This document shows, piece after piece, positions 53-64,000 of a stretch of 64,000 bases of DNA. Every line of letters begins with the position of its first letter. Within the stretch, counting starts at the first letter, position 1. The notes beneath the pieces were generated by a model, which had not been told where the DNA came from, ran no database searches, and was given only the letters and a program-made list of their open reading frames with translations. The stretch is from a virus (taxonomy: Duplodnaviria > Heunggongvirae > Uroviricota > Caudoviricetes). The position numbers and the translations under genes were made by a program. The stretch lies in IMG/VR virus record IMGVR_UViG_3300037455_000543, positions 347,136 to 411,135 of that record; one strand, given 5' to 3'.

Positions 53-253
53 TTAGATATTGATGGTAATGAAACCGGCTCTGGGACCGTCAGCATCTAC
101 GGGATCGATTGACTTGACATCGCGGCCTCTGAGATATGATGGACAGTCGGAAATAAAGCCGTCATAGACTATATCGTCCTTTGATAAATCGAAAATGATT
201 ATTTGTTGAGGACCGTTGAAAGCGGTTAATAGGGTATAAAGTGGGATATTCAT
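53..253 (-). CDS. hypothetical protein
   Basis: 66-aa ORF in a tightly packed minus-strand run. Confidence 0.6.
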   Translation of the reverse strand: MNIPLYTLLTAFNGPQQIIIFDLSKDDIVYDGFISDCPSYLRGRDVKSIDPVDADGPRAGFITINI

Positions 254-256
254 TAT

Positions 257-565
257 TTAGTCTCCTTGTTTTTCCCTGAGGTGTTTAAGGAATATGTAGT
301 CCAGGTGGTCTCTTACGTATTCCAGGATAGTTCTGAAAGAATCTGGATCTTCTACATGGGAATCGTCGTAATCTGATTCGGTACTGATAGCCATGGCGGT
401 TTTTTTATCTGGGAAATATCTGGCTACAAGTTTCTTGGTTCTTGCATGGAAGTATTGGAGATATGCTTGTGGCCATTCCTTTACGGCTGGGCATGGCTTA
501 AACGTGATATTACCGTATTCTTTAAATACGTCTATACAGATATCTTTAAATTCTTGTTCGGTCAT
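257..565 (-). CDS. hypothetical protein
   Basis: 102-aa ORF in the minus-strand run. Confidence 0.7.
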   Translation of the reverse strand: MTEQEFKDICIDVFKEYGNITFKPCPAVKEWPQAYLQYFHARTKKLVARYFPDKKTAMAISTESDYDDSHVEDPDSFRTILEYVRDHLDYIFLKHLREKQGD

Positions 566-689
566 TGGTATTATATGGAGGTTTGGAGGCGTCTCGTTTA
601 TTGACCAGTTGATCCAGTTCGTTCCTGGCTGTGGCTGGGAGTTCGTGGTATAGATTATCTAATTGTTTTAGTCTGTCTTTGAAGTTCAT
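546..689 (-). CDS. small hypothetical protein (MNFKDRLKQ...)
   Basis: Internal ATG at 689 directly follows the stop of the 691..1065 gene and fills the gap. Confidence 0.45.
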   Translation of the reverse strand: MNFKDRLKQLDNLYHELPATARNELDQLVNKRDASKPPYNTNDRTRI

Positions 690-12365: not shown

Positions 12366-13973
12366 ATGGGTAGTTTTACTAAATTTATAAACGAAGGAAA
12401 AAGAATCAGTGATTTAGATAGATCAAACGACGTAGCGAATTCTATAATACGTTTGCATAGCATGAAGTCTAATAAAGACTATAAGTTTATCGACATGCAA
12501 AAGTTTAAGAATACCTATGGAAAGTTGGAAGGCTATCTCTATATTGCTGGAACTGAAGGCTTAAGAATCAATTTTAAAAACGACAAGCTTCATTCAATAA
12601 GTTTGTGGGAAAAATATGGTTCTTATGCGCCTGATAGAACAATTCTTATTGACAAAGATACCGATAAGAAAAATCTGTTAAATTTGTATAACAACCTTAA
12701 ACCGGGACTAGATATGAAAATTCATAGCTTACATTATTTCACGCCGAAGACGCATGATGCTTTTATAAGTGTTACGCCGTTCATGGAAGCACTTAAGGAT
12801 AATGGTCCGTGGCATCCGAAGCAGCTTACTCGTTGGCTTGCAGTCTGGGATATTTCCTATCGTCAGTTCTGGGATTTTTGTGATCTTGGTGAATATAGTG
12901 ACGAAGCTGTTTTCAAGTATACTAAAGAAAATATCGATGAATTCGAACAAATCACGAAGCAAGATATTGAATGGCTTGAAGAACAAGCTAATAAAGTCAA
13001 TAATGAATATCAACGTAAACTTGATGGTGAATTCGAAGATGTCGAAGATGTTAAGACTGTAGAACCTGAAGTTATCGAAAACGTTGAAGTCGTATCGAAC
13101 GTCAAGGAAGAAGTCGAAGACAATCCGTATTCTGTTGAAAGCGATGAAGATCTTGCATCTCAGTTAATTGCGGATCCTCTTCCGGTTTTCCGTCAACTCA
13201 ATACCTATGCACTCATGGTTGCACGTGGTCTCAACAATGCACTGTTGATTACTGGACAGGGTGGTGTTGGTAAGTCCTATAATGTGAACAAAATTCTTTC
13301 CACTTATGGTAAGAAGGGCGTTGACTATGTTATCATGAAGGGTAAGAGCTCTGTTTCCGCTATGTATAAATTCCTTTACGACAATTATGACAAGATTGTT
13401 GTATTCGACGATTGCGATAGTGTGCTTCAGAATAATGACGGTCTGAATATTCTTAAGGGCGTTTTGGATAGCGGTGACGTTCGTGAAGTAAGCTGGAATA
13501 CTTCTGGTAGCTGCATGGTTGATACATTCGGTTGTGAAACTCACGAAGAAATCGAACAAAAACTCAAGGCTTGGGAAGAAACTCATAAGAATAAAGTTGG
13601 CATTCCTAACTATTTCCGTTTCATGGGTGCTTGTATCTTTATTAGCAACTTGAGTCGTTCTGACCTTGAAAAGTCTCCGTCTATGCAGGCTCTTCTTGGA
13701 AGATGCACGGCTGTTGATATTCAGTTGATGGCTTCTGATATCATTCTTAGAATTGAGTCGGTTCTTCCGCAGAAGAAAATTTACAATACTCGTGGCCAGG
13801 ATATTTCGGATCCGGCCATCAAGGAAGAAGTTTTCGAATTCATGAAATCTCCGGAATTCATGGAAGATCCGAGAATCAAGAATGCTAACATTAGCTTCAG
13901 ACTTTTCGACAAAATCTATATGTTCAGATATGCTGGCCTTCCGAACTGGAAAGAAATGGCTTACTGTGTCTAA
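12366..13973 (+). CDS. phage AAA-type P-loop ATPase with N-terminal extension
   Basis: Walker A GQGGVGKS, Walker B VVFDDCDS, IFISN, ALLGR. Confidence 0.8.
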   Translation: MGSFTKFINEGKRISDLDRSNDVANSIIRLHSMKSNKDYKFIDMQKFKNTYGKLEGYLYIAGTEGLRINFKNDKLHSISLWEKYGSYAPDRTILIDKDTDKKNLLNLYNNLKPGLDMKIHSLHYFTPKTHDAFISVTPFMEALKDNGPWHPKQLTRWLAVWDISYRQFWDFCDLGEYSDEAVFKYTKENIDEFEQITKQDIEWLEEQANKVNNEYQRKLDGEFEDVEDVKTVEPEVIENVEVVSNVKEEVEDNPYSVESDEDLASQLIADPLPVFRQLNTYALMVARGLNNALLITGQGGVGKSYNVNKILSTYGKKGVDYVIMKGKSSVSAMYKFLYDNYDKIVVFDDCDSVLQNNDGLNILKGVLDSGDVREVSWNTSGSCMVDTFGCETHEEIEQKLKAWEETHKNKVGIPNYFRFMGACIFISNLSRSDLEKSPSMQALLGRCTAVDIQLMASDIILRIESVLPQKKIYNTRGQDISDPAIKEEVFEFMKSPEFMEDPRIKNANISFRLFDKIYMFRYAGLPNWKEMAYCV

Positions 13974-13980
13974 TTAGACG

Positions 13981-14038
13981 ACTGAATAAATAAATTTAAG
14001 ACTTACGGGTTTAAACTTGTAAGTCTTTTTTCTATATT
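13981..14038 (+). promoter_or_regulatory. promoter/terminator stem-loop with ACTG box
   Basis: ACTG at 13981; AAGACTTAC/GTAAGTCTT hairpin plus T-tract; CTATATT at 14032. Confidence 0.8.
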
Positions 14039-14064
14039 ATAAAGGTAATCAAAAGGAGTTTAAC

Positions 14065-14457
14065 ATGTCTACTGCAAAGTTTATTACTTTAAAAGAATTT
14101 AAAAAATTCATTAAAGAAACATGTCCGAATCTTTATGTGAATAAGGACGGTAGTATTTTTATCAAGAATACATGTTATCTTACTTCGATTGCTGATTTAG
14201 GCTTATACGAAGAATACCATGCTGATGGTGATAATCGTATTAAGATTGGTCAATTTGATGAATGTGTAGGCACTAGTATTTTTTATTATGGTCATAAGAA
14301 AAATATTTTTGCTGTATATAATACTGATAAAGAAAAAGCTAAGATGTTTGAAAAAATTTATAATATCTTATTTTCTGAAAAAGAGAAAATTAGAAAGATA
14401 ATATTAGACGAAGCAAATCGTCTTCATGCAATAGCAAACAAAATTTGGATTGGTTAA
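14065..14457 (+). CDS. hypothetical protein
   Basis: SD AAGGAG. Confidence 0.75.
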   Translation: MSTAKFITLKEFKKFIKETCPNLYVNKDGSIFIKNTCYLTSIADLGLYEEYHADGDNRIKIGQFDECVGTSIFYYGHKKNIFAVYNTDKEKAKMFEKIYNILFSEKEKIRKIILDEANRLHAIANKIWIG

Positions 14458-14660
14458 GGAGACCATGTTTCGTGAATTTTATGAATGTTACGTGGGATAA
14501 TCGAGCGGAGCGTCAAAAAGCACTTAATGATCCGGTTAAATATAGTGGTTATTCTGTAATTGTTGATACTGTCTATAATCATGAATCTAATTACACTCCG
14601 AAAAAACCGAAGACTCAAGAGACAATGATAATTAATGGTAAAGAATATATTTTGAGGTAA
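14445..14660 (+). CDS. hypothetical protein (shorter paralog of 17237..17539)
   Basis: Shares KYSGYSxIVDTV and TMxxNGKEYIL with the 17237 protein. Confidence 0.6.
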   Translation: MDWLRRPCFVNFMNVTWDNRAERQKALNDPVKYSGYSVIVDTVYNHESNYTPKKPKTQETMIINGKEYILR

Positions 14661-14672
14661 ATCAACTAGACG

Positions 14673-14730
14673 ACTGAAAGAATATAATGGAGTAAGTAAG
14701 GTTTAAGATTGACCTTACTTTTTCTATATT
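14673..14730 (+). promoter_or_regulatory. promoter/terminator stem-loop with ACTG box
   Basis: ACTG at 14673; AGTAAGGT/ACCTTACT hairpin; CTATATT at 14724. Confidence 0.8.
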
Positions 14731-14736
14731 ATAATC

Positions 14737-15462
14737 ATGTTTGATTGTTGTGTAATGAATCCGCCTTATGAGAAAAGTCTTCACTTGAAGATTATTGCAG
14801 AACTATTACCAAAATGTGAAACAGTAGTTAATATCAGTCCATGCAGATGGCTAGAAGACCCTTTAGCCAGATATAAGAATAATTCTGATTATAAGAAGTT
14901 TGAGGATTCTGTTTCTAAAAAAATCGATGAACTTGATATTATCAAATGTGATAATGCTAATGAATTATTTGATATTGAGCACAGTGATTTGGCAATATAT
15001 AAATTTGGCAATGGCGGATATGATTATGCTAGTCTATCTAAGATGGATAGCATATCGCAAAAGATTTTTGACAAATGTAAATCTTGTAAGACAATGATGG
15101 ATATTTCTACAGAAGAAGGCTATCGTGGAAAACACGATGGAATAATCGGAGTTATTGGTTCTCATCGCCATCCTGGCCCTAAGATTATTTCTGACGATTA
15201 TAATTTGTTCATTACTTATCGAGAAACTTGTGGCAACAAATTAATTTTCTTTAAGAACGAAACTGAACGCCAAAATTGTTTTAAATATCTTACATCCAAG
15301 TTGATAAAGCATTATAGTAGTAAAGTAAGACAGAATCAACGAGTGCCATGGCAATTTATTCCCGTAATCGATTTTTCACAGGAATGTAATGACGGATATC
15401 TAAAAGAATTTTTCGGATTGACTGATAAAGAGTATAAAAATATTTTTATTGACAATTTGTAA
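14737..15462 (+). CDS. amino-methyltransferase catalytic/TRD half (motif IV NPPY onward)
   Basis: Starts MFDCCVMNPPY; ISPCRWL; no SAM-binding motif I. Confidence 0.75.
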   Translation: MFDCCVMNPPYEKSLHLKIIAELLPKCETVVNISPCRWLEDPLARYKNNSDYKKFEDSVSKKIDELDIIKCDNANELFDIEHSDLAIYKFGNGGYDYASLSKMDSISQKIFDKCKSCKTMMDISTEEGYRGKHDGIIGVIGSHRHPGPKIISDDYNLFITYRETCGNKLIFFKNETERQNCFKYLTSKLIKHYSSKVRQNQRVPWQFIPVIDFSQECNDGYLKEFFGLTDKEYKNIFIDNL

Positions 15463-15484
15463 AAAATTTTCTATATTATAAACC

Positions 15485-15946
15485 ATGCAAGATTTAACAA
15501 CGAAGAATGATGGTATTGTTAGAAGTAAAGAAAGAATTACCAAGAATGGTGAAGTCTTTACTCCTAAGGCCTTAGTCGAAAAGATGATGGATAAAATTCC
15601 AGAAGAAAAATGGAAAGATCCTAAGGCTACATTTCTTGAACCTACCTTCGGTTCGGGTAATATGTTGATTTGTATGTTGGAACGTCGTATATCTAGCGGT
15701 ATTTCGCCCATAATCGCTCTACAGACTCTTTTTGGAGTCGAACTAATGCAAGACAACGTTGACTTGTGTAAAAGCCGTATACGCGACGTATTGCGTGTTA
15801 ATAAGGTCAAGATAACGAAGAAGGTAAACGATATTATTGACCATAATTTTGTATGTTCTGATTTTTTCAAATGGGATTTTGAAAACTGGTGCCCAAAAGA
15901 ACAACCAGAATCTTCAGAATCAGAATTATCAGAATTATTTACATAG
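15485..15946 (+). CDS. amino-methyltransferase SAM-binding half (motifs X, I, II, III)
   Basis: GEVFTP, FLEPTFGSGN, FGVEL, CSDF; no NPPY. Confidence 0.8.
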   Translation: MQDLTTKNDGIVRSKERITKNGEVFTPKALVEKMMDKIPEEKWKDPKATFLEPTFGSGNMLICMLERRISSGISPIIALQTLFGVELMQDNVDLCKSRIRDVLRVNKVKITKKVNDIIDHNFVCSDFFKWDFENWCPKEQPESSESELSELFT

Positions 15947-15949
15947 TAA

Positions 15950-16007
15950 ACTGAGATAAAAAGATTATAAAGAAAAGATTGACACTGGTCAGTCTTTTTT
16001 CTATATT
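15950..16007 (+). promoter_or_regulatory. promoter/terminator stem-loop with ACTG box
   Basis: ACTG at 15950; AAGATTGAC-ACTG-GTCAGTCTT hairpin containing TTGACA; 17-nt spacer; TATATT at 16002. Confidence 0.85.
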
Positions 16008-16036
16008 ATAAAGGTAATCAACGAGGAGCATAAACA

Positions 16037-16856: not shown

Positions 16857-17247
16857 AAAGAGAGTTTTTTTCTTATATTTAAGAGGTAAAGAAGAGGTCA
16901 TAATGAATAGAATTATCCAGAAGATAAGTATACAATGGGTTCCATTTAAGGAAACTCTCCCGAAAGTCGGCTCATTTATAGTAGCTAAACGCTCTGACGA
17001 AACATTACGTTTTATGTTCGGAACGTTTACTGACAATGGATTTGCATGCCCCGATGGAACATTTATTACTTCGTTACTACATGAACAGTTTGTGTGGTCG
17101 TATGTATCTGATGTTTTCTCTGAACAGACAACAGTGGATTCAAAGACTGACAAAGTGGTCCAAGAAATTCTTGATTCTATTGTTCCGTGAGAATTTAAGG
17201 AGAATTTTTGAATTACGAAAAAAGTAGGCTTATACGATGAAAAGAGA
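16817..17247 (+). repeat. perfect 47-bp direct repeat (16817-16863 and 17201-17247) flanking one gene
   Basis: AGAATTTTTGAATTACGAAAAAAGTAGGCTTATACGATGAAAAGAGA occurs twice. Confidence 0.95.
16903..17190 (+). CDS. DUF551-like hypothetical protein
   Basis: WVPFKETLP...WSY pattern; SD GAGG. Confidence 0.55.
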   Translation: MNRIIQKISIQWVPFKETLPKVGSFIVAKRSDETLRFMFGTFTDNGFACPDGTFITSLLHEQFVWSYVSDVFSEQTTVDSKTDKVVQEILDSIVP

Positions 17248-17539
17248 ATATGCTTTAATTACAAGGGCTTCTGTTTTTTGGAGTTCTATTGGTATTTTGA
17301 TTGTATATATGCTAATCGGATTAGCTCCATCTATTATGTTGGTATCTGCTAATCAACGTGGCCAATATGCATTAGGTCCATGCTTTTATTGTAGGAATTG
17401 TAATTCTCCTGAAACAGCTGGAAAATATAGTGGTTATTCGACTATTGTAGATACTGTCTGGACAAATAAGGATTATAGTAATCTTGAAAATAAACCGCAA
17501 ACTATGATGGTTAACGGCAAAGAATACATCCTTAAATAA
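17237..17539 (+). CDS. membrane-anchored protein with CxxCxxC (paralog of 14445)
   Basis: N-terminal TM segment; CFYCRNC. Confidence 0.65.
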   Translation: MKREYALITRASVFWSSIGILIVYMLIGLAPSIMLVSANQRGQYALGPCFYCRNCNSPETAGKYSGYSTIVDTVWTNKDYSNLENKPQTMMVNGKEYILK

Positions 17540-63146: not shown

Positions 63147-63650
63147 ATGTCAAGGACAAACGGATTATATGTTGGTTCATTTGACCCGCTTACTGTTGGT
63201 CATATGGATATTATTAAAAGAGCTGCAAAACTATTTGATTTGCTTTATGTAGGTATTGCCACCAATTCTACAAAGAACTATTTATTTACCGAACCCGAAC
63301 GTTATAAGATGGTTCAAGAAGCAATAAGATATCAAGGAATAGGCAATGCTTCAATTATTAGTGTTCCTGATCAAATGACGACAGATGTAATGATTAACTA
63401 TAATATTCAGACATTGGTCAGAGGAGTTCGTAATTCTAAAGACATGGAAGATGAATATATATTGAATCAATATTATACGAATCTTAAGTATGATATGGAA
63501 GAAATTATATTGTTTAGTAGATTTCCAGCTGTTAGTTCGACATTTGTAAAAGAATGCATTAAGTATGGTAAATTTGAACGCCTTGATGAAAAATCGCTAT
63601 TTGTACCAGCTAATGTGTCAAGTATGATTTTAGATAGATTTAAGAGATAG
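63147..63650 (+). CDS. coaD: phosphopantetheine adenylyltransferase
   Basis: YVGSFDPLTVGHMDIIKRA, NSTK..LFT..ER, LVRGVR..D..E, VSSTFVKE. Confidence 0.85.
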   Translation: MSRTNGLYVGSFDPLTVGHMDIIKRAAKLFDLLYVGIATNSTKNYLFTEPERYKMVQEAIRYQGIGNASIISVPDQMTTDVMINYNIQTLVRGVRNSKDMEDEYILNQYYTNLKYDMEEIILFSRFPAVSSTFVKECIKYGKFERLDEKSLFVPANVSSMILDRFKR

Positions 63651-63654
63651 TAGT

Positions 63655-64000
63655 ATGGCAAGAAAGAAAAGCGAAAATTGTTCTGATGTTATTCAGATTC
63701 TTGGCGGTGCAAATCATGATACCGTTCGAGAAGATGAAGATTTCTATGCCACTCCTACAATGGCAGTTCAAAAACTTATCGATTCTTTCGGTCCTGTATT
63801 GAAAATCGATAATGCAACGATATTTGATCCGTGTGTAGGTAAAGGTCATATCTTAAAACCGTTCAGGGACCAGAAATACAATGTTGCTGGAACAGATTTA
63901 ATATCAAGAACTGATTTATGGGATTCACATATTGAATATCAAGGCGGTCAGGATTTTTTGAGTAGAATAGAACCTTTTCATGGTTGTAATATCGTAACAA
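63655..64000 (+). CDS. DNA adenine methyltransferase (partial, runs off the window)
   Basis: Translated by hand: DFYATP, IFDPCVGKGHI, TDL, QDFL, NIVT ending just before the expected NPP motif. Confidence 0.8.
   Translation, partial: MARKKSENCSDVIQILGGANHDTVREDEDFYATPTMAVQKLIDSFGPVLKIDNATIFDPCVGKGHILKPFRDQKYNVAGTDLISRTDLWDSHIEYQGGQDFLSRIEPFHGCNIVT

Follow-up and report, generated by a model that had tools for sequence, protein, structure and literature searches.

The window analysed here is a stretch of 64,000 nt, bases 347136-411135 of a single phage contig of 424,163 bp with 35% G+C. The contig carries 50 tRNA genes, none of which is a suppressor tRNA. We examined two neighboring ORFs in the window, ORF1 and ORF2, which sit among small genes that are all on the plus strand (Table 1). 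A sequence-only reading had described the pair as a split DNA amino-methyltransferase, and both genes and their motifs are where that reading had placed them. Below we use TRD for the target-recognition domain, "SAM half" for ORF2 and its relatives, and "NPPY-TRD" for ORF1 and its relatives.

Table 1. The two methyltransferase genes and their flanking signals, in window coordinates.
Feature	Coordinates	Strand	Description
Terminator-like hairpin	14694..14720	+	10 pairs, then T run; ends the upstream gene and overlaps the ORF1 -35 region
ORF1 promoter-like site	14703..14733	+	-35 TTAAGA (weak), 16-nt spacer, extended -10 TATATTATA at 14725-14733
ORF1	14737..15462	+	241 aa; ATG 14737, TAA 15460-62; motif IV strand through TRD
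ORF2 promoter-like site	15449..15480	+	TTGACA-17-TATATT(ATA), 11/12 matches; within the ORF1 3' end and the 22-nt spacer
ORF2	15485..15946	+	153 aa; ATG 15485, TAG 15944-46, TAA directly after
Terminator-like hairpin	15971..16000	+	13 pairs, then T run; 3' of ORF2, closes the two-gene unit

ORF1 starts with MFDCCVMNPPY. This is one residue ahead of the motif IV strand (FDCCVMNPPY) and puts the NPPY at residues 8-11. The E/DPxxGxG SAM-binding loop is absent and there are no Pfam matches. Neither a single-sequence search of PDB sequences nor tblastn against 50,697 phage records gave a match, and a profile of the ORF1 family found no relative among PDB sequences, so ORF1 was placed by fold search only. 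The AlphaFold model, folded with 25 relatives, has a pLDDT of 91 and a pTM of 0.84. VIA-align matched this model to M.BseCI 126-576 and CamA 158-577 (both Z 9.4, about 208 residues) and to M.TaqI 98-411 (Z 8.5, 192 residues), with the aligned span beginning at the first residue of ORF1 and taking in everything from the motif IV strand through the whole recognition domain. According to the model, ORF1 comprises the Rossmann sheet from the motif IV strand onwards and a TaqI-like TRD. It thus has the (D/N)PP(Y/F) of motif IV on strand 4 followed by a C-terminal TRD of the TaqI type.

An exhaustive search of representative proteins gave 576 relatives of ORF1 at E<=1e-3, mostly 240-300 aa long and starting M-K-F-D-x-I-I-M-N-P-P-Y. 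All of the invariant residues of the family (N8, P9, P10, S34, P35, W38 and L39) are present in ORF1. The NPPY is invariant in 26 aligned relatives (alignment A1) and nearly so in the best 150 of the 576 matches, where there are a few cases of NPPF, NPPW and NAPF. This conservation favors a catalytic role. Many of the relatives (P0005, P0013, P0017, P0047 and others; alignment A6) are extended at the N terminus by 90-140 aa, which show a strand-helix pattern and no SAM motifs, and in some of these a free SAM half still adjoins the gene. We considered that the extension might be a degenerate SAM half and rejected the idea, as hhalign against the SAM half gave a probability of 0.2, which indicates no relation.

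ORF2 has the SAM-binding motifs: X (GEVFTP, residues 22-27), I (FLEPTFGSG, 50-58), II (FGVEL, 83-87) and III (CSDF, 123-126). It ends in an acidic tail after motif III and has no NPPY or other motif IV and no TRD. It matches positions 23-94 of the Pfam model N6_Mtase (PF02384) with 24.9 bits, above the cut-off of 20.4, and phrog_21201 at 2.5e-21. The profile of the ORF2 family matches the N-terminal cofactor part of HsdM, M.BseCI (7-120), CamA (15-72) and DrdV. No longer, fused relatives of ORF2 turned up in the word-indexed library. We believe Lak-type recoding of its TAG stop to be unlikely because none of the 50 tRNAs is a suppressor and because reading the TAG as Gln would add only one residue before the TAA.

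Upstream of each small gene in this region there is a unit that consists of a terminator-like hairpin, a -35 hexamer (TTGACA or TTTACA), a spacer of 17-18 nt, and TATATTATA. The 12-mer TCTATATTATAA occurs 19 times in the window, where about 2 are expected, and lies immediately 5' of both ATGs. Genome-wide there are 116 copies of TATATTATA, 53 of them with a -35-like hexamer at the right distance. These 53 promoter-like sites cluster at 282-330 kb on the minus strand and at 347-370 kb on the plus strand. The sequence-only reading had given each of the two genes its own TATATT promoter, an ACTG box and a leaderless ATG. The leaderless starts stand: the gap from TATATTATA to the ATG is 3 nt for ORF1 and 4 nt for ORF2, there is no Shine-Dalgarno sequence at either gene, and 17 of the 53 promoter-like sites share the layout (ATG 1-4 nt past TATATTATA), as against a typical leader of 20 nt with GAGG in most other genes. 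The promoter of ORF2 is a good one, whereas that of ORF1 has a poor -35. The ACTG box is weak, as it is found 5' of 24 of the 53 sites compared with 22% of random 70-mers, a mild enrichment. We found no terminator between ORF1 and ORF2, only the hairpins that bracket the pair. This arrangement suggests that the two genes probably also share one transcript, with the ORF2 promoter as an additional internal one.

The hairpin and promoter cassette at 14694 recurs at 13998-14027 and 15971-16000, and such promoter cassettes were the only shuffling-type repeats that we found near the pair. Compact cassettes of hairpin, T run and TATATTATA are present at 13998-14042, 14694-14734 and 15971-16011, with about 50 more in the genome. 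In these, the -35 hexamer of a gene lies within the terminator hairpin of the gene before it. The ORFs at 14445-14660 and 17237-17539, which flank the pair, share a C-terminal module of about 40 residues (KYSGYS-[VT]-IVDTV ... NGKEYIL-[RK]), a paralogous domain. The protein encoded at 12366-13973, just upstream of the early-gene cassettes, has 535 aa and an ATPase core of the P-loop/STAND-like type (phrog_1250 at 1e-40, weak matches to nSTAND3 and DUF815).

Both ORFs map onto TIGR02987, the NCBIfam model of a single-chain adenine methyltransferase, although with weak E-values (1e-4 and 3e-3): residues 20-68 of ORF2 fall on positions 2-53 and residues 2-58 of ORF1 on positions 113-170. Both also match phrog_11371, which has 383 positions, ORF1 at 4-39 and ORF2 at 283-369. 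This double match was the first sign of single-chain relatives in the order ORF1-ORF2. Taken together, the fold match of ORF1 and the profile matches of ORF2 mean that the two ORFs tile a TaqI-like enzyme that is cut in its strand 3-4 loop. The earlier claim that they are complementary halves of one amino-methyltransferase fold, cut between motifs III and IV, is therefore supported by the TIGR02987 mapping, the fold of ORF1 and the profile of ORF2. The phage encodes one protein that starts at motif IV and a separate one, in the range of about 125-185 aa, that has motifs X, I, II and III only. The phage family with this split is represented by phrog_11371, phrog_21201 and phrog_4376. The two ORFs are in different frames, and the frame of ORF2 is closed until 15482 by a TAA at 15479-81, past the stop of ORF1. 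We could therefore exclude a fusion of ORF1 and ORF2 by frameshift or read-through.

The relatives closest to this phage are MAG contigs from the reticulum and ileum of goats. In one of these goat contigs (L055) the ortholog of ORF2 is 87% identical and that of ORF1 64% identical. The dN/dS values from this comparison are 0.04-0.10 for ORF2 and 0.14-0.32 for ORF1, although they are rough because synonymous sites are near saturation. Judged from these sequences, both genes are under purifying selection. The two halves in L055 are 1.6 kb apart with three other genes between them, and the SAM-half gene has its own TTTACA-17-TATATT promoter with the ATG 6 nt past it. Another group of relatives, with a 411-kb contig among them, has the SAM half as the first gene, then three small paralogs and then the NPPY-TRD gene. 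The genes between the halves in L055 (4732-6301) are also three small paralogs, all ending in SPEWT-[ED]-[LV]-[KE]-L, and those in L030 (5441-6612) are three small paralogs with a GD-V-x-DWTI motif.

We found 38 IMG/VR contigs with either half. On 25 of them both halves were present as separate genes in the fetched stretch, in either order and often with overlapping or abutting stop and start codons. The other 13 had one half only in the fetched stretch, and some of these stretches were cut by contig ends. In Shigella phage PSD9 and the T4-like cyanophage S-SKS1, a longer NPPF/NYPY-TRD protein comes first and its gene overlaps that of the SAM half by 17 nt, and in Bellamy, another T4-like cyanophage, there is one gene between the two. 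Lak megaphages have the SAM half at 41-42% identity. The NPPF-TRD partner of PSD9 (L001, 503-2002) has an N-terminal LEM-3-like GIY-YIG nuclease domain (Pfam, 3.8e-9), so going by this sequence some T4-like phages may have the split methyltransferase within a nuclease-methylase enzyme.

The sequence-only reading had also proposed that the SAM half could pair with exchangeable catalytic/TRD halves, and that the genome and its relatives be searched for more of them. Searches of the 424-kb genome with phmmer, six-frame family profiles and a motif scan found no further stand-alone NPPY-TRD or SAM halves. The genome has one of each, a minimal 1:1 set. The only other NPPY protein of the genome is a complete small methyltransferase of about 209 aa at 63634-64000 of the window (continuing to genome position 411416). 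It has its motifs in the normal order (DFYATP, IFDPCVGKG, GTDL, QDFL, NIVTNPPYK) without a TRD, and resembles APU01582.1, the small enzyme of Aeromonas phage 65.2.

The idea of exchangeable halves did better among the relatives, several of which have 2-3 NPPY-TRD paralogs. With a single SAM half in the fetched stretch, there are three NPPY-TRD genes in tandem in L007 and two in each of L013, L014 and L009. The fetched stretches of L024 and of two short MAG contigs (L057 and L059) have three NPPY-TRD genes each, and no SAM half was seen in these stretches. The Prevotella phage Lak-A2 (L005) has one SAM half with two full NPPY-TRD genes and a fragment. Tandem paralogs have the first ~45 and the last ~45 residues in common and differ in the middle. 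This pattern, along with the better conservation of the SAM half in L055, would fit a shared cofactor subunit. We put forward, tentatively and as one possibility, that the enzyme is combinatorial, with one SAM subunit common to 1-3 interchangeable NPPY+TRD subunits, and that the family, with its gamma-order fusions, beta-order fusions and free halves in either gene order, is a record of how the permuted amino-methyltransferase classes arose by fission and fusion. If this is true, a phage could add or swap specificities by duplicating or exchanging one gene for a protein of 250 aa.

Lak-A2 also has a 108-nt inverted repeat (17-124 and 2770-2877, 95% complementary) that makes up the 5' ends of two convergent NPPY-TRD genes. 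These genes lie beside the single SAM half, are far more diverged outside of the repeat, and have a TRD-only fragment between them. From its sequence, the repeat could be a recombination or inversion site for TRD swapping.

There are also relatives in which the two modules are fused, which we found via PHROGs, tblastn and the search of representative proteins. A fusion in Aeromonas phage 65.2 is 386 aa long; its NPPY is at residue 13 and residues 300-386 make up the SAM half. A metagenomic singleton (P0019) has the same layout. In L018 there is a 1113-aa helicase fusion in gamma order, SAM half and then NPPY-TRD, with another free SAM half after it. The model of P0019, made from an alignment of free halves, has a pLDDT of 86.6, a pTM of 0.82 and a floppy linker at 253-300. 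Its best 10 matches among 48,161 PDB representatives are all beta-class DNA amino-methyltransferases, and residues 1 to 364-386 of P0019 align sequentially with these ten structures. The Z scores include 10.9 for M.MboIIA, 10.1 for M.PvuII, 9.9 for CcrM, 9.8 for EcoP15I Mod and 9.5 for M.RsrI. M.TaqI aligns to residues 1-218 only, and P0019 scores 23.2 bits against PF01555, below the cut-off of 26.7. The sequential, whole-length alignment implies that in this model both halves pack into one canonical catalytic domain, although the halves in the alignment were unpaired, so that most of the predicted packing comes from what AlphaFold has learned about the fold. With that caveat, the P0019 model suggests that two such modules can build one canonical catalytic domain.

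From the sequences and models, we consider it likely that a single phage N6-adenine DNA methyltransferase, of the TaqI/CamA/Eco57I-like (gamma-type) sequence family, is built from ORF1 and ORF2 as its two subunits. ORF2 would give the cofactor half, which is the motif X helix and strands 1-3 with the glycine loop, the ribose-binding acidic residue and the adenine-contact residue. ORF1 would give the DNA-reading domain and the remaining strands, from 4 (which carries the catalytic NPPY) to 7. As strand 1 lies next to strand 4 in the middle of the sheet of the methyltransferase fold, the edges of the two chains would meet to make one sheet of seven strands, and the interface would hold the SAM pocket and the flipped adenine. 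Simple docking of strand 1 on strand 4 may not hold across the family, as some relatives have both the N-terminal extension and a separate SAM half nearby. For expression, the pair would form one unit between two terminators, with early-type sigma-70-like promoters at its start and, as an extra one, inside it. We infer adenine N6 in DNA as the substrate from the fold and the family, and the likely job would be to protect the phage DNA from host restriction by methylation. Across the wider family, the SAM half would be a common subunit that serves 1-3 NPPY-TRD subunits of different specificity.

We weighed three other explanations of the pair. Neither ORF alone has the full set of motifs and ORF1 has no Pfam match, as might be seen if the two were rearranged, non-functional fragments of a once-intact gene. 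We give very little credence to this. The dN/dS is well below 1 for both ORFs, the family-invariant residues are all kept, and both genes start cleanly and have promoters of their own. The same split is present in dozens of distant phages, where the halves are adjacent or apart and in either order, and what we see in the relatives are separate, conserved genes instead of decaying fragments of an intact gene. The earlier argument against simple decay is thus borne out. It is harder to dismiss that the two proteins have no joint function: ORF1 might bind specific DNA sequences without catalysis or serve as a decoy while ORF2 binds SAM or acts as a regulator by itself, or the two might each have other partners. 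The genes are not adjacent in the closest relatives, some contigs have a single half only, the N-extended relatives of ORF1 might be self-sufficient, and in one phage a SAM-half-like gene adjoins a full-length methyltransferase. We nevertheless think that this is unlikely, because three Rossmann strands alone are not expected to fold or to bind SAM, going by general knowledge of the fold. The constancy of the NPPY among the aligned relatives and best matches, the high co-occurrence of the halves, and the existence of fusions of exactly these modules, which are predicted to fold as one domain, also speak for a joint enzyme.

The remaining question is what such a two-subunit enzyme would methylate. 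Enzymes with NPPY include HemK/PrmC, which modify protein glutamine, and the rRNA/tRNA m2G enzymes, and this phage has 50 tRNA genes that could be targets. One relative (P0047) has weak HemK/PrmB matches around the NPPY, and RNA and protein methyltransferases, KsgA and Trm11 among them, align to ORF1 with Z scores of about 5. However, these alignments cover only the 90-residue core at the start of ORF1, whereas the matches over the whole length are all DNA adenine methyltransferases with TaqI-type TRDs, at Z 8-9.4 over about 200 residues. DNA methyltransferases also rank first for the ORF2 profile, as do the padloc MTase_II/I models. We regard an RNA or protein substrate as quite improbable.

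We next compare the putative two-subunit DNA methyltransferase with known systems. Gamma-class enzymes have the order X-I-II-III-IV-TRD in a single chain, and beta-class enzymes have the order IV...TRD...X-I-II-III. The pair resembles the gamma class (M.TaqI, CamA, M.BseCI; PF02384, and PF07669 of Eco57I) in its GxxFTP, E/DPxxGxG and FDxxxxNPPY motifs and in how strands 4-7 and the recognition domain of ORF1 fold. It differs in being two ORFs that are cut between motifs III and IV, with the IV-TRD piece encoded first, where the gamma class has one polypeptide. The beta class (M.MboIIA, M.PvuII, M.RsrI, CcrM; PF01555) has the linear order IV-VIII, TRD, X, I-III that we see here at the level of the genes, and the fused P0019 aligns to it over the whole length. 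However, neither ORF1 nor ORF2 matches PF01555, the TRD is TaqI-like, and there are two chains in the window. The term "order-swapped", which the sequence-only reading had used, is thus right relative to the gamma class and not in general, as the ORF1-ORF2 order is that of the beta class and relatives show both orders.

The whole catalytic domain of Type I systems, with the NPPY, is in HsdM, and HsdS only reads DNA. The proposed enzyme is similar in that a common cofactor subunit would serve exchangeable specificity subunits, and the ORF2 profile matches HsdM. It differs in that here the catalytic motif travels with the DNA-reading part. To our knowledge, all characterized amino-methyltransferases have cofactor binding and catalysis in one chain, and we found no literature on a natural split gamma or N6A methyltransferase. 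The only natural split cited in the literature that we found is M.AquI, a cytosine-5 methyltransferase made of two polypeptides from separate genes (cited in PMC5944983). As described there, the resemblance is that of a natural DNA methyltransferase in two polypeptides. M.AquI is a C5 enzyme split between domains, while the pair in the window is an NPPY amino-methyltransferase cut between motifs III and IV, inside the Rossmann sheet, which would part cofactor binding from catalysis.

Circularly permuted M.EcoKI-like adenine methylases have been mentioned for jumbo phages (Iyer et al. 2021, PMC7824862), and these share their broad clade and kind of host genome with our pair. That paper mentions permuted single chains only, and not split two-gene forms or multi-TRD arrays. 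The 386-aa fusion of Aeromonas phage 65.2 has the permuted M.EcoKI-like layout, and the paper gives no accession for the permuted forms. We rejected APU01582.1, its sole accession, as a member of the family because it is an ordinary small methyltransferase with the normal order. The models for the origin of circular permutations are duplication, which is documented for methyltransferases, and fission-fusion (PMC3320104).

If our reading is correct, the methyltransferase fold assembles in nature from two genes with a cut in the middle of the Rossmann sheet. The split and fused forms would then be natural intermediates for the alpha, beta and gamma permutations, whose origin has long been debated, and they would point to fission-fusion as opposed to duplication. 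It would also account for many proteins of large phages, T4-like and Lak phages included, that are missed by annotation pipelines and labeled "hypothetical". If one SAM half does serve several TRD halves, the family would be a compact scaffold from nature on which to build split or programmable adenine methylation, and the phages would have a new route to diversify their anti-restriction methylation.
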